IMG/VR virus record: IMGVR_UViG_2541047846_000008
Location: 1-40,632 of that record
Reading direction: 5' to 3' (one strand)
DNA: 40,632 bases
DNA from: a virus
Lineage: Duplodnaviria > Heunggongvirae > Uroviricota > Caudoviricetes
The translations under genes and the position numbers were made by a program. Positions 5,582 to 40,256 of this stretch are shown piece after piece (position 1 is the stretch's first letter; each line of letters opens with the position of its first letter). The notes beneath the pieces are model-generated. The model was not told the DNA's origin. It was given only the letters and a program-made list of their open reading frames with translations, and searched no databases.

Positions 5582-6667
5582 TTACAGACACTTGACTACT
5601 GTTGAAACATCAGATTCTAGTGCTTCAATTTGTGCTCTATTAGCTTGGGTCGCCATACCATAGATAGTGTAACTCTTATGCTGCAGCCTACTTAAAGGGC
5701 ATCCCTCATGGTTTATTATTGCTGCAAGAGTATTACCATCTTTGACATTTTGAACTCTCTCGAAAGTAGCCACATTTGTGAACAGATGAGGATGTGTATT
5801 TAACAGGTCATCCGTGATTCTTTTGATCTCTTCTGCATGTGATTTGAATGCTTTTGCTGCATCACTTTCATTAGTTCTTGAGCGGTTTTGTACGAAAAGG
5901 TGTAGTTCAGGTAGTTCGATAAGGTTTTGCTTTGCTTCTTTGTTGAAATCTAAGAACATTTCATCTTGTTCTGACTTGTCAATAGACACTCCATAAATAA
6001 GTTTAACAAGGTTTTTTATTCCGCGAATTGATGCAGCATCGGCAGTGCAAGGGATAATTATTCTATTTGCCGCGACTACTCCCAATTCTGTGTAGCTGGC
6101 AAAACTTGGGTTACAATCAATAAAAAATGTTTTTGCTCTGTCAGAAATGTTTTTATCGGCTTCAAAAGATGCTATTAGATCTACCAGCAAAGATCGGCTT
6201 TTCTTCCATGCTTCTTTTACTGGGGATGAGCCAATGTGAGATATTAAGCGTGAACAGATATCAAGATCGACATCACCAGGAAGAATATATAAGTTCTCTG
6301 GCATTTTTGCATTAACATCATGGGCTCGTACAAAGTAAGAAGATTCATTTCCTAAACGAGACAAAGGAGATTTGCTAAAACGCTCCTTGATATAACCTGC
6401 GATTGTAACATTTCTGTCTCGCAATTTATTTAGATTTTCTTCCCCGGTACCATTGCCACCAAGAATAATTTCTGAAACGTTTGATTGAGGGCATGAGTCA
6501 ATAACCACAACATCTTGATCCGGATGAGATATAGCAAACTCAACGGCAAGATTATATGTAAGAAAAGTTTTTCCTACACCACCTTTGTTGTTCCATACTA
6601 AATATTTTGTATTGGTGGAAATCATATCTGCTACCCCATCTGTCGCTTCAGTACGTTCATTAATCAT
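5582..6667 (-). CDS. ParA/MinD-family P-loop ATPase with ~110-aa C-terminal extension; AT-rich moron next to repressor
   Basis: Deviant Walker A NNKGGVGKT near N-terminus, FIDCNPS and IIIPCTAD motifs; 361 aa; AT-rich; own terminator. Confidence 0.75.
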   Translation of the reverse strand: MINERTEATDGVADMISTNTKYLVWNNKGGVGKTFLTYNLAVEFAISHPDQDVVVIDSCPQSNVSEIILGGNGTGEENLNKLRDRNVTIAGYIKERFSKSPLSRLGNESSYFVRAHDVNAKMPENLYILPGDVDLDICSRLISHIGSSPVKEAWKKSRSLLVDLIASFEADKNISDRAKTFFIDCNPSFASYTELGVVAANRIIIPCTADAASIRGIKNLVKLIYGVSIDKSEQDEMFLDFNKEAKQNLIELPELHLFVQNRSRTNESDAAKAFKSHAEEIKRITDDLLNTHPHLFTNVATFERVQNVKDGNTLAAIINHEGCPLSRLQHKSYTIYGMATQANRAQIEALESDVSTVVKCL

Positions 6668-6901: not shown

Positions 6902-7642
6902 TTAAAGTCGATTATATTTAATCGACTCATGAATCAGTGCCTTACCCATAACATAAAGCTGATCTTGCGACTTCTCATCAATGTACCATTTCTCATAGGC
7001 GGGGTTATCCGAAAGAACAGCTAGTTTGTTGCCTTGCATTTGTAGACGTTTAACATGGAAAGTCTTACCGTAAACGAAAGAGTAAACTCCATCAGTCTGG
7101 AAGTGGCGAACGGAAATGTCGACAAACAATCGATCCCCGGAAACAAGAGTTGGGGACATACTATCTCCATTTACCGTCATAACTTTTATATCATTCTGAG
7201 AACGGTTTCCGAAAAGAGAACGGGCATGTTCAGTTGTGAACTCAATGGCGTAGAGCACATCAACATAGTCTGAAAGCATATAGGTCCCAGGTCCTGCGCT
7301 AACGCTAAGATCCAAAACTTCTATCCTGTATACATCGGGCTTTGTTGGATTGGGGATGCTTGCCATTTCCTTACATTCCTCTCTATCTCCAACACCATAT
7401 TCTAGATATGAAGCTGATACTCCAAGAGCCAACGCAAGTTTACTCATGACAGAGACACGTGGCTTCGCTGCGCCGATTGTGTATCGACGAGCCATTTCAT
7501 ATGTAACGCCCACAAGACTTTTGAGTTGAGTGACAGAGATTCCTTTGATTGTCATCAATTCGTTTAGTCTCTTGGCGAAATCTGGATACTTCTGTTCTTC
7601 TACCATAGGTAGAAGATTACTCACATCACACGCGCTAGTCAT
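6902..7642 (-). CDS. CI-like prophage repressor (N-terminal HTH, C-terminal S24 LexA-like autopeptidase)
   Basis: HTH segment followed by VNGDSMSPTL (S24 catalytic Ser) and downstream Lys; divergent from cro; internal ATG start consistent with a leaderless transcript. Confidence 0.85.
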   Translation of the reverse strand: MTSACDVSNLLPMVEEQKYPDFAKRLNELMTIKGISVTQLKSLVGVTYEMARRYTIGAAKPRVSVMSKLALALGVSASYLEYGVGDREECKEMASIPNPTKPDVYRIEVLDLSVSAGPGTYMLSDYVDVLYAIEFTTEHARSLFGNRSQNDIKVMTVNGDSMSPTLVSGDRLFVDISVRHFQTDGVYSFVYGKTFHVKRLQMQGNKLAVLSDNPAYEKWYIDEKSQDQLYVMGKALIHESIKYNRL

Positions 7643-7644
7643 TT

Positions 7645-7680
7645 CTATTTTAAGTAGTTGCAATTTGCTATTTTAAGTAG
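7645..7680. promoter_or_regulatory. Operator region of the cI/cro switch: two copies of CTATTTTAAGTAG
   Basis: 13-bp partly palindromic direct repeats at about 7645..7657 and 7668..7680 between divergent cI and cro. Confidence 0.5.
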
Positions 7681-8933: not shown

Positions 8934-9875
8934 ATGAGCACTAAATTAACCGGCTATGTATGGGATGGTTGCGCTGCGTCAGGCATGAAGTTATCCAGCG
9001 TGGCAATTATGGCCCGCCTGGCTGATTTCAGTAATGACGAAGGTGTGTGCTGGCCATCAATTGAAACCATTGCCCGCCAGATTGGCGCGGGGATGAGCAC
9101 CGTCAGAACGGCTATCGCACGGCTGGAAGCAGAAGGCTGGTTAACGCGTAAGGCGCGTCGCCAGGGTAACCGCAATGCGTCGAATGTTTATCAGCTTAAC
9201 GTTGCGAAGCTTCAGGCAGCGGCATTTTCTCAACTGTCAGATTCTGACCCGTCAAAATCTGACGCATCAAAATCTGACCAGTCAAAATTTGATGCGTCGA
9301 AATCTGGCAAAAAAGCGGGTTTTCACCCGTCAGAATCTGGCGGGGATCCGTCAGTAAAATCAAAACATGATCCGTCAGATAAAAAAACTTCTCGTCCGGA
9401 CGCTTCGCAACCGGACACGCAGACGGCTGAACAGGAGTTTTTAACTCGCCATCCTGATGCGGTTGTATTCAGCCCTAAAAAGCGCCAGTGGGGAACGCAG
9501 GATGATTTGACCTGCGCACAGTGGCTCTGGAAAAAAATCATCGCCCTGTACGAGCAGGCCGCCGAATGTGACGGCGAGGTGGTTCGTCCCAAAGAACCGA
9601 ACTGGACAGCCTGGGCAAACGAAATTCGCCTTATGTGTGTGCAGGATGGTCGTACTCACAAACAAATCTGCGAGATGTACAGCCGCGTCAGCCGCGATCC
9701 GTTCTGGTGCCGTAACGTGCTCAGCCCGTCGAAGCTGCGGGAAAAATGGGATGAGCTTTCCCTGCGCTTATCGCCGTCCGTCAGCACGTACACCGAAAAA
9801 CGCGAAGACCCGTACTTCAAATCCAGTTACGACAACGTGGACTACAGCCAGATCCCGGCAGGATTCAGGGGGTGA
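8934..9875 (+). CDS. Replication initiation protein (N-terminal HTH, central repeat linker, DnaT-like C-terminal region)
   Basis: N-terminal HTH typical of phage replication initiators; SKSD-type pentapeptide repeats encoded by DNA iterons. Confidence 0.65.
   Translation: MSTKLTGYVWDGCAASGMKLSSVAIMARLADFSNDEGVCWPSIETIARQIGAGMSTVRTAIARLEAEGWLTRKARRQGNRNASNVYQLNVAKLQAAAFSQLSDSDPSKSDASKSDQSKFDASKSGKKAGFHPSESGGDPSVKSKHDPSDKKTSRPDASQPDTQTAEQEFLTRHPDAVVFSPKKRQWGTQDDLTCAQWLWKKIIALYEQAAECDGEVVRPKEPNWTAWANEIRLMCVQDGRTHKQICEMYSRVSRDPFWCRNVLSPSKLREKWDELSLRLSPSVSTYTEKREDPYFKSSYDNVDYSQIPAGFRG
9237..9311 (+). repeat. Iteron array (five 15-bp phased repeats, core TCAAAATCTGAC), candidate origin of replication
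   Basis: tcagattctgacccg / tcaaaatctgacgca / tcaaaatctgaccag / tcaaaatttgatgcg / tcgaaatctggcaaa, with degenerate copies to about 9389 and an A-rich tract. Confidence 0.55.
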
Positions 9876-10366
9876 TCATGAGTCTTTTGAATGAAGTTCA
9901 GAAATTCATTGAAGCCCATCCGGGGTGTACTTCCGGAGACATTGCGGATGCTTTTGCAGGTTACTCACGGCAGCGCGTTCTGCAGTATGCAAGCAAGTTA
10001 CGTCAGAGTGGGCGTGTGGCTCACCGTTGTGAAGGAGATACACGCAGACATTTCCCGCGCCTGACTGAGAGAGCGAAGGAGCTGGAACCACAACCAGTTC
10101 GTGAAACCAGACCTGTGCGCAATTTCTATGTCGGCACTAACGATCCACGGGTGATTTTGTGCCTGACCCGCCAGGCTGAAGAACTGGAGTCCAGGGGCTT
10201 ATACCGTCGTGCTGCAACGGTGTGGATGGCGGCATTCCGTGAAAGCCACTCCCAGCCAGAACGAAACAATTTTCTGGCACGTCGTGAGCGGTGCTTACGG
10301 AAAAGCAGCAAGCGCGCTGCATCGGGTGAAGAGTGGTATCTGTCAGGGAATTTCGTGGGGGCTTAA
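9872..10366 (+). CDS. Putative regulatory protein with PerC-like C-terminal motif
   Basis: 164-aa ORF with ATGA overlap; motif AEELESRGLYRRAATVW resembles PerC/Pch activators (from memory). Confidence 0.35.
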   Translation: MIMSLLNEVQKFIEAHPGCTSGDIADAFAGYSRQRVLQYASKLRQSGRVAHRCEGDTRRHFPRLTERAKELEPQPVRETRPVRNFYVGTNDPRVILCLTRQAEELESRGLYRRAATVWMAAFRESHSQPERNNFLARRERCLRKSSKRAASGEEWYLSGNFVGA

Positions 10367-11019
10367 TGAGTAATAAATATTGCCAGGCGCTGGTGGAACT
10401 GCGGAACAAACCAGCCCATGAACTGAAGGAAGTGGGCGATCAGTGGCGCACGCCGGACAACATTTTCTGGGGAATTAACACCCTGTTTGGCCCGTTTGTT
10501 CTGGATCTGTTCACTGACGGTGATAACGCCAAATGTGCTGCGTATTACACGGCGGAAGACAACGCGCTGGCGCATGACTGGTCAGAACGTCTTGCGGAGC
10601 TTAAAGGGGCTGCCTTTGGTAATCCCCCATACAGCCGCGCCAGTCAGCATGAGGGGCAATACATCACCGGCATGCGTTACATCATGAAACATGCCAGTGC
10701 CATGCGTGATAAGGGGGGGCGCTATGTTTTCCTGATCAAAGCTGCCACCAGCGAAGTGTGGTGGCCGGAAGATGCGGACCATATTGCTTTTATTCGAGGG
10801 CGTATTGGTTTTGAACTGCCTGCCTGGTTTATCCCGAAAGACGAGAAGCAGGTACCGACAGGCGCTTTCTTCGCTGGTGCTATTGCTGTTTTCGACAAGA
10901 CCTGGAAGGGACCGGCAATCAGCTACATCGGGCGCGATGAACTTGAGGCATGTGGTGAGGCCTTTCTGGCGCAGGTTCGCCAGCAGGCAGAAAAACTGGT
11001 CAGGGAGATGGCGGCATGA
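10366..11019 (+). CDS. Phage DNA N6-adenine methyltransferase (Dam-like), orphan
   Basis: NPPY catalytic motif (GNPPYS); start overlaps upstream stop; no restriction partner in window. Confidence 0.8.
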   Translation: MSNKYCQALVELRNKPAHELKEVGDQWRTPDNIFWGINTLFGPFVLDLFTDGDNAKCAAYYTAEDNALAHDWSERLAELKGAAFGNPPYSRASQHEGQYITGMRYIMKHASAMRDKGGRYVFLIKAATSEVWWPEDADHIAFIRGRIGFELPAWFIPKDEKQVPTGAFFAGAIAVFDKTWKGPAISYIGRDELEACGEAFLAQVRQQAEKLVREMAA

Positions 11020-11342
11020 CGACGTTAACTCAATGCCAGCAGCAGGTGCTGGATATGCTGATTTCTTATCAGAAAGAACGTGGCTTCCCGCCAACCAATC
11101 AGGAGGTGGCAACCATGCTGGGATACCGTTCAGTGAATGCAGCGGTGGAGCATCTTCGCGCACTGGAGAAAAAAGGCGTCATCACGATAAAGCGTGGTGT
11201 GGCCCGGGGGATCACGCTTCATACCGCAGTGAAGGACGACGACAGCGAAGCGGTCGGGATTATCCGCTCACTGCTTGCCGGTGAGGAAAACGCAAGGCTG
11301 CGTGCAACTCACTGGTTACATGAGAGAGGCCTGAAAGTATGA
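11016..11342 (+). CDS. LexA N-terminal DNA-binding-domain-like protein lacking the peptidase domain
   Basis: Pattern LTxxQQxVLDxxxxxxxxxGxPPTxxExAxxLGxRSxNAAxEHLxALxxKGVIxI matches the LexA winged-helix domain; 108 aa, no S24 domain. Confidence 0.65.
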   Translation: MTTLTQCQQQVLDMLISYQKERGFPPTNQEVATMLGYRSVNAAVEHLRALEKKGVITIKRGVARGITLHTAVKDDDSEAVGIIRSLLAGEENARLRATHWLHERGLKV

Positions 11343-11728
11343 AGCTGATCCTGCCTTTCCCGCCCAGCGTGAACACGTACTGGCGACACCCCAACAAAGG
11401 GGCATTTGCTGGTAAGAGCCTGATAAGCGCGGCGGGGCGAAAATTTCAGAGCGCGGCGTGTGCAGCAATAGTTGAGCAGTTACGTCGTCTGCCAAAACCA
11501 ACGTCGGCACCTGCTTCAGTGGAGATCGTGTTGTTTCCTCCGGATAACCGGATCCGCGATCTGGACAACTATAACAAGGCGCTGTTTGACGCCCTGACCC
11601 ACGCGGGTGTGTGGGAAGACGACAGTCAGGTGAAAAGAATGCTGGTGGAGTGGGGACCGGTTATCCCGGAAGGGAAGGTCGAGATCACTATCAGTAAGTA
11701 CGAGAAAACGGCGGGTGCAGCCGCCTGA
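11339..11728 (+). CDS. rusA: Holliday junction resolvase RusA
   Basis: 129 aa; LPxPPSxNxYWRH, DLDNYxKAxxDALT and WxDDSQV motifs characteristic of RusA. Confidence 0.85.
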   Translation: MKLILPFPPSVNTYWRHPNKGAFAGKSLISAAGRKFQSAACAAIVEQLRRLPKPTSAPASVEIVLFPPDNRIRDLDNYNKALFDALTHAGVWEDDSQVKRMLVEWGPVIPEGKVEITISKYEKTAGAAA

Positions 11729-13567: not shown

Positions 13568-14320
13568 ATGAACCTTGAAGCCTTACCAAAATATTACTCC
13601 CCAAAATCTCCAAAATTGAGCGATGACGCACCGGCGACAGGCTCAGGTGGTTTAACGATTACGGATGTGATGGCTGCGCAGGGGATGGTGCAGTCGAAAG
13701 CACCGCTTGGGTTTGCCTTATTCCTGGCAAAAGTTGGTGTTCAGGATCCTCAGTTTGCGATTGAAGGTCTGCTCAATTACGCGATGGCACTGGATAACCC
13801 GACATTGAATAAATTGAGTGAAGAAACCCGGTTACAGCTCATCCCTTACCTTGTGAATTTTGCCTTTGCTGATTATTCCAGGTCTGCGGCAAGTAAGGCT
13901 CGCTGTGAGCATTGTGCTGGTACTGGATTTCATAATGTATTGCGCGAAGTGGTGAAACACTCCAGAAGCGGGGAATCAGTTATCAAGGAAGAGTGGGTGA
14001 AGGAACTATGTCAGCATTGTCATGGTAAGGGAGAAGTCAGCACAGCGTGCAGAGGGTGTAAGGGTAAAGGTATTGTCCTGGATGAAAAAAGGACCCGGCT
14101 TCATGGCACGCCTGTTTATAAGATTTGTGGGCGTTGCAATGGAAACCGGTTTAGCCGTTTACCAACCACACTGGCGCGGCATCATGTCCAGAAGCTGGTA
14201 CCAGACCTGACGGATCATCAGTGGTACAAAGGATATGCAGATGTCATTGATAAACTGGTGACAAAGTGCTGGCAGGAAGAAGCATATGCTGAGGCGCAAT
14301 TAAGAAAAGTGACAAGATAA
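13568..14320 (+). CDS. Late-gene antiterminator Q-like protein (zinc-binding)
   Basis: Four CxxC pairs; sits immediately upstream of the pR'-like promoter, tR'-like terminator and lysis cassette. Confidence 0.55.
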   Translation: MNLEALPKYYSPKSPKLSDDAPATGSGGLTITDVMAAQGMVQSKAPLGFALFLAKVGVQDPQFAIEGLLNYAMALDNPTLNKLSEETRLQLIPYLVNFAFADYSRSAASKARCEHCAGTGFHNVLREVVKHSRSGESVIKEEWVKELCQHCHGKGEVSTACRGCKGKGIVLDEKRTRLHGTPVYKICGRCNGNRFSRLPTTLARHHVQKLVPDLTDHQWYKGYADVIDKLVTKCWQEEAYAEAQLRKVTR

Positions 14321-14389: not shown

Positions 14390-14430
14390 GATGGGCTTTG
14401 TATGTCTGCCGTTAACGAAATCATAACAAA

Positions 14431-14451
14431 CCTCGCTTCGGCGGGGTTTTT
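14431..14451 (+). terminator. tR'-like Rho-independent terminator downstream of the late promoter
   Basis: CCTCGC-TTCG-GCGGGG stem with UUCG tetraloop followed by TTTTT. Confidence 0.6.
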
Positions 14452-33284: not shown

Positions 33285-34329
33285 ATTTCAGCGCCCGACG
33301 CTGGCAGAAAATATCAGTATGCTCCGTAACGATTTATTCGCCAGGCTGGACGTCAGCGACACGCTCCGGCGCATGGATGAAGACGTGCGGGCAAAGGTGT
33401 ATGCGGCGGCGCTGCATACGGTTTACGGGTACATCGATTATCTGGCAATGAACATGCTGCCTGACCTGTGCGATGAGTCCTGGCTGGCGCGACATGCTGC
33501 GATGAAACGGTGTCCGCGCAAGGGGGCCACGGCTGCCAGCGGGTATATGCGCTGGGAAGGTGTCAGCGATGGCCTGAAGGTGACCGCCGGGAGTGTTATT
33601 CAGCGCGATGACCTGGTTCAGTACACGGCAACTGCCGATGCAACCAGCTCCGGTGGTGTCCTGCGCGTGCCGATCGCCTGCTCAAGTGCAGGCGCGGTCG
33701 GTAACGCTGACGACGGTACGTCATTAATCCTGGTCACGCCGGTGAATGGTCTGCCGTCTTCCGGCGTGGCAGATACACTGACAGGTGGATTTGATACTGA
33801 AGAGCTGGAAACGTGGCGCGCCCGCGTCATTGAGCGGTATTACTGGACGCCTCAGGGCGGGGCTGACGGGGACTATGTCGTCTGGGCTAAAGAAGTTCCC
33901 GGCATTACCCGCGCATGGACATACCGACACTGGATGGGAACGGGGACTGTCGGTGTGATGATTGCCAGCAGCGACCTGATTAATCCCATTCCGGAAGAAT
34001 CAACGGAAACGGCGGCAAGACAACATATCGGGCCACTGGCCCCGGTGGCAGGCTCTGATTTGTATGTGTTCAGGCCGGTGGCGCATACGGTGGATTTTCA
34101 TATCCGTGTGACGCCGGATACACCAGAAATACGGGCTGCCATCACCGCCGAGTTGCGTTCGTTCCTGCTGCGTGATGGTTATCCGCAGGGAGAACTGAAG
34201 GTGTCGCGTATCAGTGAAGCGATTTCCGGTGCGAACGGGGAATACAGCCATCAGTTGCTTGCACCGGCAGACAATATCTCCATTGCAAAAAATGAACTGG
34301 CGGTACTGGGGACGATTTCATGGACGTGA
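33271..34329 (+). CDS. Baseplate J-like protein
   Basis: 352 aa; position and size. Confidence 0.75.
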
Positions 34330-34907: not shown

Positions 34908-35654
34908 ATGCATCGTATAGACACGAAAACCGCGCAGAAGGATAAGTTCGGCGCGGGTAAGAACGGTTTTACCCGTGGTAACCCCCAGACCGGCACACCT
35001 GCCACCGATCTGGATGATGACTACTTTGACATGTTGCAGGAAGAACTTTGTAGCGTGGTGGAGGCCTCCGGTGCCAGCCTGGAGAAGGCGCGGCACGACC
35101 AGTTGCTTACCGCGCTTCGTGCGCTGCTGTTAAGCCGCAAGAATCCGTTTGGCGATATCAAATCGGATGGCACGGTGGAAACGGCTCTCGAAAACCTTGG
35201 TTTGGGAGAAGGTGCTCCAGCTATTGGCGTTCCGTTCTTCTGGCCGTCCGCTGCAATGCCAAATACTGTAATCGACAGCTGGTCCAGTATGGTGTTTTTG
35301 AAGTTCAACGGCGCGAAATTCTCTGCCACTGATTATCCTGTGCTGGCGAAAGTGTTTCCTTCGCTGGTATTACCTGAAGCCCGCGGTGATTTCATTCGTA
35401 TCTGGGATGACGGGCGAGGTGCAGACGGTGGTCGCGAATTATTAAGCTGGCAGGAAGCTACAAACTTTTCTCAGTTTGCCGGGAATATAGTCGGAGGTGC
35501 GGGACACGCAATTAACTTTCATGATGGCATCGCCGGAAATCAGCCAGGATTTTCACGATTTAATTTCACCAGTAACTCTGTGGGTGATGGTGTGAATTTT
35601 GTTGCTGTCAGACCGCGAAATATTGCATTTAACTTTCTGGTGAGGGCTAAATAA
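34908..35654 (+). CDS. Tail fibre protein (constant N-terminus to about 35216, variable C-terminus inside invertible segment)
   Basis: 248 aa; crossover site inside the gene; an alternative C-terminal exon lies on the opposite strand. Confidence 0.8.
35187..35216. repeat. Left recombination (crossover) site of the invertible segment, inside the tail fibre gene
   Basis: ctcgaaaaccttggtttgggagaaggtgct; matches the inverted partner at 36925..36954 in 20 of 21 positions; resembles hix/gix-type sites. Confidence 0.5.
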
Positions 35655-36247
35655 TGAAACCTGTTTTTGATGAAAATGGGCTGGCCACAGTGCCGGGCGA
35701 TATGCGTTGTTTTTATTATGATGCTGAAACATCTGAGTATACGGGCTGGTCTGATGAATATATTAATACTGGCGTAAGTATGCCCGCCTGTTCCACTGGT
35801 ATTGACCCGGGCGAAAACATTCCGGGGAAAGTGGCAGTATTTACGGGTAAGGGATGGAGCCATGAAGAAGACTATCGCAATGAGACTGTTTACTCAACAG
35901 AAAATGGCGCAGCTGTTACAGTGGATTATATCGGTGCCATCAAAAACGGTTATGTCACGCTTTCACCGTTAACGCCATATGATAAATGGGATGGTGAGAA
36001 ATGGGTGACAGATACTGAGGCACAACACGGTGCCGCAGTAGAAGCAGCAGAAGCACAGCGCCAGTCACTGATTGATGCAGTAATGGCTTCCATTAGTCTG
36101 ATTCAGCTGAAATTACAGGCCGGACGGAAACTGACTCAGGCAGAAACAACCCGACTTAACACCGTGCTGGATTACATTGACGCGGTGACGGCAACAGATA
36201 CCAGCACCGCGCCGGATGTCATCTGGCCTGAACTGCCGGAGGCGTAG
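35654..36247 (+). CDS. Tail fibre assembly protein (Tfa), active orientation
   Basis: 197 aa; conserved C-terminal motif TSTAPD(V/I)xWPExP shared with the inverted copy. Confidence 0.8.
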
Positions 36248-36647
36248 GCCATTCAATATCGGGTGCTGTTGAAGTATCAACACGCATCAGCAGCACACGG
36301 TATTTCTTCCATTCGGTGAGAGTTGAAGTTTCTTCATCAGTTGCGATATCAGCATCAACAGCATCCTGACGCCAGGATATTTCACTGTCAGCTTTTTCCC
36401 GTAATTGGGATTTTTTAACTTCAGCAATAGCTATTAATTCCTTTTTGGTCGGCTGAGGAATATCTATCAGTGCTGGTTTTCCATTCAGTGTTCCAATCTG
36501 TTTTCCTGGTGGAATATCCATAAATAACTTTTTATGTTCTTCCTCACTGACTATTACACCATCATCAGGCCACAGACCTGATGCCTCAAATTTTTCTTTC
36601 TCCGATATGGGGAAAAAGCCATTTGATTTAGCGCTCCATACGTACAT
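36219..36647 (-). CDS. Tail fibre assembly protein (Tfa), alternative copy in inverted orientation
   Basis: 142 aa; C-terminal motif [15 protein letters not shown]; convergent with the other Tfa. Confidence 0.75.
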
Positions 36648-37015: not shown

Positions 37016-37579
37016 ATGATTTACGGGTATGTTCGTGTATCAACAAATCATCAGGATACAGAGTTGCAACGTCTTGCACTTGAGTCAGCTGGCTGTGAGC
37101 GAATTTATGAAGAATATGCCAGTGGCAGAACAGCTAATCGCCCTGTGTTAAAGGAATTAATTACGGTGATGAAAAGTGGAGATGAGTTGATTGTCTGGAA
37201 GTTAGATCGGATAGGGAGAAATGTGCTGCATGCGCTATTGATGTTTCAAAATCTGCACGAAAAAGGTGTTAATTTTCGGAGTATTACAGATGGCGTAGAC
37301 CTGAAAACAGCAAGTGGTCGCTATAATTTCCGTAATATTCTTTCTGCTGCGCAGTATGAATCTGATTTGAATAGCGAGCGAACTTTAGCTGGTTTGGCTA
37401 TTGCCAGATCCAAAGGCCGGATTGGTGGGCGTAGACCGAAGTTTAGCGACGAGCAGTGGCAACAGATGGGAGCGCTCATAGCGGCAGGGAAATCACGGCG
37501 TTATGTTGCACGTATCTATAACGTTGGGCTATCAACCCTATATAAACGATTTCCTGTTACTGGCATTCAAACGAAATAA
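37016..37579 (+). CDS. pin: Serine DNA invertase (Pin/Gin/Hin family)
   Basis: N-terminal YVRVSTxxQ catalytic Ser motif and C-terminal HTH; 187 aa; adjacent to inverted crossover sites. Confidence 0.9.
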   Translation: MIYGYVRVSTNHQDTELQRLALESAGCERIYEEYASGRTANRPVLKELITVMKSGDELIVWKLDRIGRNVLHALLMFQNLHEKGVNFRSITDGVDLKTASGRYNFRNILSAAQYESDLNSERTLAGLAIARSKGRIGGRRPKFSDEQWQQMGALIAAGKSRRYVARIYNVGLSTLYKRFPVTGIQTK

Positions 37580-37722: not shown

Positions 37723-37971
37723 TTAGTGAACAAACCACTCGTCAGCAGATTCCCAGGTATCTTTCAGAGTCTCCTGAACAAAAGTTTTTGCAGAATCCTT
37801 ATCTGCGGTGCGTGTAACAGAAAGGCCATCGTTGCTGGTGGCTTTTACGATCACCTCTACATCGTCATAACGTTTACTGATGCGTCGGGTTAATTCTTCC
37901 TTTAACGCATCCACAGCACCGGTTGGCATTTTAGTCATTTTTTCTTTGGCTATGCAGATTTCAATACGCAT
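37723..37971 (-). CDS. dinI: DinI-like protein (predicted RecA/SOS modulator)
   Basis: 82 aa; MRIEI.IAK and C-terminal TWESADEWF motifs as in DinI; two LexA boxes upstream. Confidence 0.8.
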
Positions 37972-37986
37972 AAAAGTCCCTCTATA

Positions 37987-38030
37987 CTGTGTTTGTATAC
38001 AGTATTATTTTTAACTGTATAGATAAACAG
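37987..38030. promoter_or_regulatory. Two tandem LexA (SOS) boxes upstream of the dinI-like gene
   Basis: taCTGTgtttgtatACAGta (37987..38002) and aaCTGTatagataaACAGtg (38015..38030); both CTGT-N8-ACAG. Confidence 0.65.
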
Positions 38031-38032
38031 TG

Positions 38033-39130
38033 TCAAGAGGCCTTATTTCTGCTCCTTTGGAGCTCTTCAAAACGATTATGTAAAGATTTCGGATACAGTT
38101 CGGTATATACCTGCCATAGCACGTTTAATGAACGATGCCCTGTAACCTGGGCGACTTCCTCAATACTAAAACCAGCCTCAAATAAGCGACTTGCCCCTTC
38201 TCTACGCAAATCATGGTATCGCAGATCTTTAATACCTAATTTGCTTCTTACCCTCTGGAATCCCGCAGTAACAGAAGTGCTGTTATATGGAAAAATGAAT
38301 TCTGATTTTTTGGGTTGTCGTTGGACGATATCCCAGGCTTCCCCAAGCAAGGCTACTTTCATATGGTTGCCTTCCTTTTTACGTGGATCTTTCCTGTCTC
38401 TTACGAGTATGGATTTTTGTTCCTGATCGAGATCCTCCCATCGTAATCGGCATACTTCACCGATTCGCATACATGACCACACAGAAAATTTGAGGATATC
38501 AACGAACGGAATTTTTGAGCATTTATGTGTAGATCGTTGTTGAAGACCTTCAATGAGCATGTCCAGTTCATCAGATGCCGGTCTACGATTACGACGATTT
38601 GATTTACCAATTAAACCAAGTTTAAGTAGATATGGACGAGCGGCTTTTGCTGGGTTTGATGTGTAATTAATTCCATATACAGGTTTGGCAGCATCCAGAA
38701 CACTGCCAAGATAACTAACATCGTGGCTAACTGTAGCTGGACCTGCACCAGCGTTGTTTCTTAGCCTGCAATGTTCAATTACGTCATTTTCTGTCAGTTC
38801 AGATAGTTTGAGCGCGGAGACGTCACTATCCATAAGCAGTTCCAGCACATATCTTTTAGTACGGCCTGCTTTACCTCCGGCATTTGGGTCATTTAAATAT
38901 TTGTGTAGTAAGTCACGGACTGTAAGTCCGTCAACTGCATTTGATGATGGAATGCCATATAGATCTAATTCCATCACTTTCTGTGTGCCCCATGTTTTGG
39001 CATGAGCATGTTTAGGGAATGTTTTACTTTCCCTGTAAGTGATAACACCTTTTTCTTTGATAATCACATTACAGCGATAGCGTGGTGTGCCATCGGATTT
39101 TAGTCGTTTCTCTATGTTATAGTATGCCAT
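38033..39130 (-). CDS. int: Tyrosine integrase (DusA-targeting type)
   Basis: 365 aa; C-terminal catalytic region with RxxR ... HDLRR ... Y pattern; adjacent to dusA. Confidence 0.9.
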   Translation of the reverse strand: MAYYNIEKRLKSDGTPRYRCNVIIKEKGVITYRESKTFPKHAHAKTWGTQKVMELDLYGIPSSNAVDGLTVRDLLHKYLNDPNAGGKAGRTKRYVLELLMDSDVSALKLSELTENDVIEHCRLRNNAGAGPATVSHDVSYLGSVLDAAKPVYGINYTSNPAKAARPYLLKLGLIGKSNRRNRRPASDELDMLIEGLQQRSTHKCSKIPFVDILKFSVWSCMRIGEVCRLRWEDLDQEQKSILVRDRKDPRKKEGNHMKVALLGEAWDIVQRQPKKSEFIFPYNSTSVTAGFQRVRSKLGIKDLRYHDLRREGASRLFEAGFSIEEVAQVTGHRSLNVLWQVYTELYPKSLHNRFEELQRSRNKAS

Positions 39131-39218
39131 TACACGACCTCGTTATTTCGGGTTCCCATAAAACGTGGGAACCTGTGCGGGAACCTAACGCGAGAAAAAT
39201 AGCCTGAAATGTTCAAAA

Positions 39219-40256
39219 ATGCACGATAATCATGAAGCACAAAAAATTAATCAAACCAGCGTGATGCCTGAAAAAACTGGTGTTTACTGGAATTCTCGGT
39301 TTAGCATTGCTCCTATGCTTGACTGGACGGACAGACATTGCCGTTATTTCCTGCGTCTGCTTTCCCGCAATACGTTGCTGTATACCGAAATGGTGACCAC
39401 AGGGGCGATTATTCACGGTAAAGGTGATTACCTGGCGTACAGTGAAGAAGAACATCCGGTAGCGTTGCAACTCGGGGGTAGCGATCCGGCGGCGCTGGCA
39501 CAGTGTGCGAAGCTGGCAGAAGCGCGCGGATATGATGAGATCAACCTGAATGTCGGCTGCCCGTCTGACCGGGTGCAGAACGGCATGTTTGGTGCGTGTC
39601 TGATGGGTAATGCGCAGCTGGTTGCCGACTGCGTGAAAGCGATGCGCGATGTGGTGTCGATTCCGGTGACGGTGAAAACGCGTATTGGCATCGATGATCA
39701 GGACAGCTATGAATTTCTCTGCGATTTCATCAACACCGTTTCCGGCAAAGGTGAGTGTGAGATGTTCATCATCCACGCACGTAAAGCCTGGCTTTCTGGG
39801 TTAAGTCCGAAAGAAAACCGTGAGATCCCGCCGCTCGATTATCCGCGTGTGTATCAACTGAAGCGTGACTTTCCGCATCTGACGATGTCGATTAACGGTG
39901 GTATCAAGTCGCTGGAAGAAGCTAAAGCGCATTTGCAACATATGGATGGCGTGATGGTCGGGCGCGAGGCGTATCAGAATCCGGGGATTCTGGCGGCGGT
40001 AGACCGAGAGATTTTTGGTTCCTCGGATACCGATGCCGATCCGGTGGCGGTAGTGCGCGCCATGTATCCGTACATTGAGCGTGAACTCAGCCAGGGTACG
40101 TATCTCGGCCATATTACCCGGCATATGCTGGGCTTGTTCCAGGGTATTCCTGGCGCGCGGCAGTGGCGGCGTTATTTAAGTGAAAATGCCCATAAAGCGG
40201 GTGCAGACATTAATGTGCTGGAACACGCGCTCAAACTGGTGGCGGATAAGCGTTAA
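39219..40256 (+). CDS. dusA: tRNA-dihydrouridine synthase A
   Basis: 345 aa; conserved Dus motifs; followed by pspG as in E. coli. Confidence 0.9.

Follow-up and report, generated by a model that had tools for sequence, protein, structure and literature searches.

What does a phage do with the DNA-binding head of LexA once the domain responsible for self-cleavage is gone? The question is raised by a small gene of an SfV/mEp460-like prophage that possesses a Mu-type contractile tail, adjoins dusA and is contained in the IMG/VR virus record IMGVR_UViG_2541047846_000008, whose 40,632 nucleotides were analysed in full and are referred to here as the window. An earlier note on this DNA had described the gene as encoding a LexA DNA-binding domain without an S24 peptidase domain, and the list of open reading frames (ORFs) and the sequence give exactly the ORF and the 108-amino-acid product that it had put forward. 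The product is a LexA-type head followed by a two-helix tail particular to the family. Binding of this protein to the SOS box (CTGT-N8-ACAG) is a plausible hypothesis. The gene and its parts are the following:

11016..11342, plus strand: gene of the protein made of the LexA N-terminal domain (NTD) only, an ATG-to-TGA ORF of 108 codons (PF01726, PHROG 362)
11016..11222, plus strand: LexA-type winged helix-turn-helix, residues 1-69 (AlphaFold2 (AF2) model, Foldseek)
11130..11171, plus strand: recognition helix, residues 39-52, SVNAAVEHLRALEK (ungapped LexA alignment, family and LexA alignments)
11223..11339, plus strand: tail, residues 70-108, in which a short acidic linker leads into helices 75-88 and 93-103 (AF2 model)
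11277..11282, plus strand: A88-G89, aligned to the A84-G85 scissile bond of LexA (HMMER, LLAGE against VAAGE in LexA)

The LexA-type head and the tail that follows it

The LexA identity of the head is far beyond chance. The Pfam profile LexA_DNA_bind (PF01726) is matched over all of its 65 positions by residues 1-65 of the protein, with an E-value of 2.9e-19 and a score of 69 bits for a cutoff of 23.7. A phmmer search of the PDB retrieves E. coli LexA (1lea, 1jhh, 3jso) with E-values of ~1e-15, residues 2-69 aligning without gaps to residues 2-69 of LexA. The AF2 model, built from 30 family members (mean predicted local distance difference test score, pLDDT, of 83), exhibits helices 6-22, 28-35 and 40-52 as well as wing strands 56-58 and 66-68. 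Its top Foldseek matches are the E. coli LexA structures 3jso and 1lea (root-mean-square deviation 0.9-1.2 Å, ~50% identity), the first rank being held by DNA-bound LexA, 3jso (0.9 Å over 68 columns, 50% identity). The earlier note had named an unrelated winged-helix fold as one outcome that would speak against its assignment; the fold recovered is that of LexA itself. The PHROG 362 profile (‘transcriptional repressor’) is matched end to end, residues 1-108 covering profile positions 1-106 of 106 with an E-value of 1.1e-59. Some NCBI records of relatives carry the family name Rrf2, which is unsupported: PF02082 scores 16.1 bits for a gathering cutoff of 30.

E. coli LexA extends this head with an S24 peptidase and dimerisation domain harboring Ser119 and Lys156 and undergoes RecA-stimulated autocleavage, whereas the 108-residue protein has none of these features. 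Its chain stops at residue 108 and contains no Pfam match to the S24 peptidase domain (PF00717). The NCBIfam lexA equivalog, TIGR00498, is covered over model positions 1-91 of 203 only, and its score of 70.8 bits stays below the cutoff of 110.95. Since the autopeptidase domain is absent, RecA-stimulated self-cleavage of the protein is impossible, as the earlier note had argued.

The DNA-contact residues of LexA are S39, N41, A42, E44 and E45 (PMC3091678, a secondary citation for the role of E44). Four of these five are kept by the phage protein, E44 being replaced by a valine; P40 is also replaced by a valine, and the wing residues R64 and G65 are retained. In an alignment with 11 full-length LexAs, the protein keeps all 16 invariant positions, including S39, N41 and R64, together with the nearly invariant A42. 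The changes are R28N, F37Y, S63A and E44V, the first three affecting residues that are nearly invariant in LexA. The match over the conserved positions of LexA that the earlier note had claimed, and the agreement of DNA-contacting residues that it proposed to check by alignment, therefore stand for the invariant positions and for four contacts, but not for these substitutions, E44 among them. Across the phage family alignment, S39 and N41 are invariant. To judge by these alignments, the head is plainly of LexA type and is altered, consistently across the family, at one position that contacts bases.

In place of the linker and C-terminal domain (CTD) of LexA, the protein carries a helical tail of 39 residues, the two helices of which are modelled at pLDDT 86-88. 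The hydrophobic pattern of this tail (A79, I82/I83, L86/L87, A93, A97, W100/L101, G105) is kept in relatives down to ~40% identity, and its amphipathic character is common to those from E. coli, Salmonella, Citrobacter, Cronobacter, Klebsiella, Enterobacter, Atlantibacter and Kosakonia. No PDB structure matches the tail in a Foldseek search with the AF2 model. LexA dimerises through its CTD (PMC3091678). This domain probably also helps to set the spacing of the half-sites. Because other winged-helix regulators dimerise via C-terminal helices, the two-helix tail would, by analogy, replace the CTD as the dimerisation element. The LexA(1-84) autocleavage fragment is, like the phage protein, a free LexA head; in the host this fragment is removed by ClpXP, whereas the phage protein continues past the cleavage position into its extra tail.

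The HMMER alignment to LexA continues through the linker as far as A88-G89. The idea of a working cleavage site at this position, open to trans-cleavage by LexA or CI, was rejected, as the pair is not conserved and the segment is predicted to be helical. Relatives carry AN, VG, RE, DD, EE, NN and other pairs there, so A88-G89 is an evolutionary remnant of a full-length lexA ancestor. Such an alignment, running through the linker to the relic, and the many frameshifted copies found in databases are features that a decaying, functionless fragment of a captured lexA gene would display. That the gene is such a fragment is nevertheless very improbable: length and tail pattern are kept across genera to ~40% identity, synteny and translational coupling are maintained, at least 2223 complete E. 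coli genomes carry an intact gene, and the ratio of non-synonymous to synonymous substitution rates (dN/dS) is ~0.08 in close pairs, namely against the Shigella and SfV copies. By this last measure, the gene is under purifying selection.

Two observations on the family concern its C-terminal parts. The C-termini of many members in the family alignment are small and hydrophobic (-SAA, -AIA, -ITA, -IVA, -KV). Such hydrophobic ends resemble the C-terminal tags recognised by ClpX, for example the -VAA of cleaved LexA, and the turnover of family proteins might be controlled by proteases. Furthermore, several representatives of 140-350 amino acids apparently contain two tandem LexA-type winged-helix domains, each giving two separate matches to the query (P0132, P0133, P0149, P0152, P0153, P0156 and P0159). 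With tandem heads, these proteins possibly make up for the missing LexA CTD as covalent dimers.

Operon setting and time of expression

The time at which the protein would be made is suggested by the genes around it and by the repressor of the prophage:

6902..7663, minus strand: CI-type repressor of the RecA-sensitive class (Pfam HTH_3 and Peptidase_S24)
10333..11019, plus strand: DNA N6-adenine methyltransferase (Dam), the 5' neighbour (Pfam Dam, E=1e-45)
11339..11728, plus strand: RusA Holliday-junction resolvase, the 3' neighbour (Pfam RusA, E=6e-15)
13568..14320, plus strand: Q antiterminator, closing this string of genes (Pfam Antiterm, E=1.5e-53)
14428..14449: terminator-like hairpin

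The lexA-like gene shares a 4-bp ATGA overlap with each neighbour, its ATG with the TGA of dam and its TGA with the ATG of rusA, and these overlaps indicate that it is translationally coupled between the two. In the window, an unbroken plus-strand string contains CII-like, replication, PerC-like, Dam, LexA-like, RusA, KilA-N, DUF968 and Q genes. As Q ends this string, the operon is assigned as early-right or delayed-early. A consensus scan finds neither a sigma-70-like promoter nor a plus-strand terminator flanking the lexA-like gene. The dam promoter annotated in the SfV record is weak and is further degraded in the window. A promoter of the gene's own, active in the lysogen, is unsupported: the hexamers in the window are weak (TGGCAC ... 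TACGGA) and the consensus scan finds no promoter there.

Because the gene lies inside the early-right operon and lacks a convincing promoter of its own, it would be expressed only after induction or on infection. It is probably transcribed from the early-right promoter only, being off in the lysogen and turned on after CI inactivation or infection. Its place in a phage early-right operon distinguishes it from LexA, which is encoded by an autoregulated SOS gene. Expression after induction means that the protein would modulate events that follow induction rather than the decision to induce. The earlier note had proposed a multi-layer control of SOS-linked induction, involving an S24-bearing CI and a LexA-boxed dinI-like gene. 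Both are present in the prophage, but the inferred timing of the lexA-like gene would place its action after induction, outside the induction decision.

The gene order PerC, methyltransferase(s), LexA-like, RusA, KilA-N/Rha, DUF968, Q is common to SfV and to prophages of Cronobacter, Salmonella and Atlantibacter, the LexA-like proteins at these syntenic loci being ~49%, ~57% and ~48% identical in Cronobacter, Salmonella and Atlantibacter, respectively. Such a constant neighbourhood raises the idea of an accessory factor of DNA metabolism, in which the winged helix would tether or modulate Dam, another methyltransferase or RusA, or contact a host protein: in E. coli, Cronobacter, Salmonella and Atlantibacter the gene always lies, coupled, between a methyltransferase (Dam, or Dam and a C5-type enzyme) and rusA. 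This linkage is not obligatory, since the Klebsiella/Enterobacter subfamily lacks the upstream methyltransferase and Klebsiella also lacks RusA. The base-contacting residues S39 and N41 are invariant, moreover, as expected for sequence-specific binding, and the accessory role is improbable.

Directly 5' of dam, at 9872..10366 on the plus strand, lies a gene for a putative transcriptional activator of the PerC family, which occupies the same place in Cronobacter, Salmonella and Atlantibacter prophages.

Candidate operators of the protein

If the protein reads SOS boxes, the window itself offers one candidate target, far from the gene:

37723..37971, minus strand: DinI-family gene, 82 amino acids (Pfam DinI, E=1.1e-19)
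37985..38032: tandem canonical LexA boxes TACTGTGTTTGTATACAGTA and AACTGTATAGATAAACAGTG, around the -10 of the dinI promoter (pattern search)

These two boxes, at 37987..38002 and 38015..38030, are the only perfect CTGT-N8-ACAG sites in the window and confirm what the earlier note had reported for the dinI-like gene. They also rank first and second in a heterology-index scan of the window, the matrix of which was derived from a set of SOS boxes and provides a rough ranking only. Both are located inside the 61-bp gap between dinI and int and, as read from the sequence, bracket the -10 of a TTGACA promoter. The prophage dinI promoter is thus a possible phage-internal target of the protein.

Relatives in other genera provide a second set of boxes, some of them upstream of the LexA-like gene:

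Locus L002, 5385..6393; loci L022 and L026, ~9308..10294; locus L025, 9467..10315 (the same as L028): LexA boxes linked to genes of the 130-135-amino-acid subfamily
Locus L027 (SfV), 34170..34189; locus L008, ~10310; locus L009, ~10444; locus L010, ~4696: LexA box at the start of a methyltransferase gene

In the Klebsiella/Enterobacter subfamily, whose proteins are 130-135 amino acids long, a strong canonical LexA box is found 530-690 bp upstream of the gene, on the same strand. The Klebsiella order is the box TACTGTTTATTTATACAGTA, dinI directly 3' of it, a small ORF, the LexA-like gene, DUF968 and lysis genes. In a Rac-like prophage of Enterobacter, the order is the box AACTGTACATTCATACAGTG, a small ORF, the LexA-like gene, RusA, DUF968 and Q, without dinI in between; the repressor of this prophage possesses HTH_3 only and no S24 domain. 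This arrangement suggests SOS-controlled expression of the branch, from an operon running into RusA, DUF968 and Q. The upstream box fits a role in SOS circuitry, without proving it.

Shigella phage SfV and Salmonella prophages share a conserved, strong LexA box, TACTGTAAAAATAAACAGTG, 3' of Q, where it covers the beginning of the coding sequence of an N6_N4 DNA methyltransferase. This box could be the promoter element of an SOS-regulated moron or a coincidence of coding sequence. In Kosakonia, one locus (L020) has a LexA box ~3.2 kb downstream of the LexA-like gene, and the other two of three (L016 and L019), as well as the Cronobacter, Atlantibacter and Leclercia loci, have none within the fetched flanks.

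The favoured explanation of the gene is the following. The protein would be a LexA-derived regulator, in which a complete winged-helix head is joined to a family-specific two-helix hairpin that replaces the S24 domain and would supply dimerisation. It would be made only once CI is gone, by induction or infection, exactly when host LexA has been cleaved. Binding to CTGT-type operators would then re-impose repression on LexA-controlled promoters, those of host SOS genes, of the prophage dinI gene and of LexA-controlled genes of co-resident elements, and activated RecA would be unable to relieve it. Re-imposed repression is mechanistically reasonable because a free LexA NTD retains part of its SOS-box binding and continues to repress where it is not removed by ClpXP (PMC10584840). 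In the Klebsiella/Enterobacter subfamily, the gene stands behind a LexA box and its product might exert negative feedback on the SOS-induced operon that encodes it. Taken as a whole chain, a dimeric, RecA-insensitive LexA-type regulator that acts early in lytic growth and re-represses SOS-box-like operators is a serious possibility, somewhat short of probable. That it serves as a RecA-proof surrogate of LexA, re-silencing the SOS regulon after lytic commitment or infection and shutting off host SOS functions and the genes of rival elements, is more doubtful.

Several observations weigh against this proposal. Position 44 is a glutamate in 10 of the 11 full-length LexAs and never in the phage family, in which it is V, A, F, T, N or L; R28 is likewise lost. 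Position 45 also differs between subfamilies (E, D, G, L, T, I or A), and the 44/45 pair reads VE, AE, FE, TD, ND, LL, LT or FI depending on the subfamily, a variation that suggests diverging DNA specificities. With another module for dimerisation, the half-sites may be required at a spacing different from N8. Neither the pattern search nor the heterology-index scan reveals a strong LexA box in the window beyond the dinI promoter. The expectation that a phage-internal LexA box always accompanies the gene was rejected, since no consistent target emerges and the boxes of the window are 27 kb away at dinI.

A precedent points in the same direction. In the Bacillus thuringiensis phage GIL01, the truncated LexA homologue gp6 has GaCACAnnTGTGaC, not the LexA box, as its binding site and switches on P3, a late promoter; it is the product of an early gene expressed after LexA inactivation (PMC6182141). 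The two proteins, compared by description, are both phage-encoded LexA DNA-binding domains devoid of the autopeptidase. gp6, however, is a tectivirus protein described as the LexA DNA-binding domain alone, without a C-terminal tail, whereas the 108-residue protein has a conserved two-helix tail of ~35 residues and belongs to a Q-antiterminated lambdoid/SfV-like genome. gp6 is the only characterised analogue of the protein.

By the same route, the head of the enterobacterial protein would have drifted to a phage-specific operator, differing in half-site, in spacing or in both, and would act as activator or repressor at one or a few phage promoters with little effect on SOS. The systematic loss of E44 and R28, the variability of positions 44 and 45 between subfamilies and the new dimerisation tail in place of the CTD are all consistent with such retargeting, as is the recurrence of short stand-alone LexA winged-helix proteins in many unrelated phages, Tectiviridae included (BFVD). 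The search for the operator itself argues otherwise: CTGT/ACAG palindromes with spacings of 0-14, in either orientation, are not enriched over shuffles in the window, and the module that travels with the gene yielded no conserved candidate. Late transcription is already supplied by Q, and the recognition helix of the subfamily found in the window is closer to that of host LexA than retargeting would need (~50% domain identity, with S39, N41, A42 and E45 kept). Overall, a private operator is the main rival reading, unlikely though far from negligible.

Carriers and significance

The gene had already been annotated, by similarity only, and phage proteins made of a LexA head only are a known kind. 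At the nucleotide level it is 100% identical to E. coli genes annotated as ‘LexA family transcriptional regulator’ (RefSeq WP_000210170.1), and its product is 98.1% identical to SfV orf42. SfV orf42, PHROG 362 and WP_000210170.1 are the same protein (98-100% identical), with no difference to report. Searches of the full-text literature brought up no work on the function of the enterobacterial family of LexA heads. Close copies occur in 2233 of 5426 complete E. coli genomes (41%). A tblastn search with the 108-residue protein (E<=1e-3) retrieves 63 of 50,697 phage records, among them SfV, SfII, SfIV, mEp460, cdtI, 1720a-02 and the Stx2a, Stx2c and Stx2k converting phages, and the protein is also annotated in Stx1a phages; no Bacillus phage is among the organisms named in the tblastn result, the query being the enterobacterial protein and not gp6. 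Many copies in databases are frameshifted or fused, including Dam-LexA-like and LexA-like-RusA fusions (P0024, P0034, P0081, P0111, P0044; L013), as expected from decaying prophages or assembly errors.

Some further features of the window were observed. A ParA/MinD-like ATPase of 361 amino acids (5582..6667, minus strand; Pfam AAA_31 and CbiA) is encoded between the CI gene and the early-left operon, an unusual position, and may be a moron or an exclusion or defence gene. A serine invertase of the Hin/Gin type (37016..37579, plus strand; Resolvase and HTH_7) lies beside oppositely oriented tail-fibre ORFs (35654..36647), which suggests an invertible host-range segment. The integrase abuts dusA (38033..40256), and the prophage presumably occupies the dusA integration hotspot. 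A prophage of E. coli RM8385 that shares the module is inserted at the same dusA site, only ~4 kb from the host lexA-dinF operon (L001, 3251..7909).

The weight of the question comes from the carriers, which comprise ~41% of complete E. coli genomes and the phages converting for Stx1a, Stx2a, Stx2c, cdt and Shigella serotypes. If the protein has a private operator, as GIL01 gp6 does, it would be a second, independent case of a LexA head recycled as a new phage regulator. If SOS boxes are its targets, a prophage gene of very wide occurrence would override the host response to DNA damage in a manner that RecA cannot reverse, and SOS mutagenesis, the cross-induction of co-resident prophages and colicins, and the kinetics of Stx phages after antibiotics could all be altered. 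As a surrogate of LexA, it would represent a widespread, unrecognised modulator of SOS output, with a possible bearing on the behaviour of Shiga-toxin phages.

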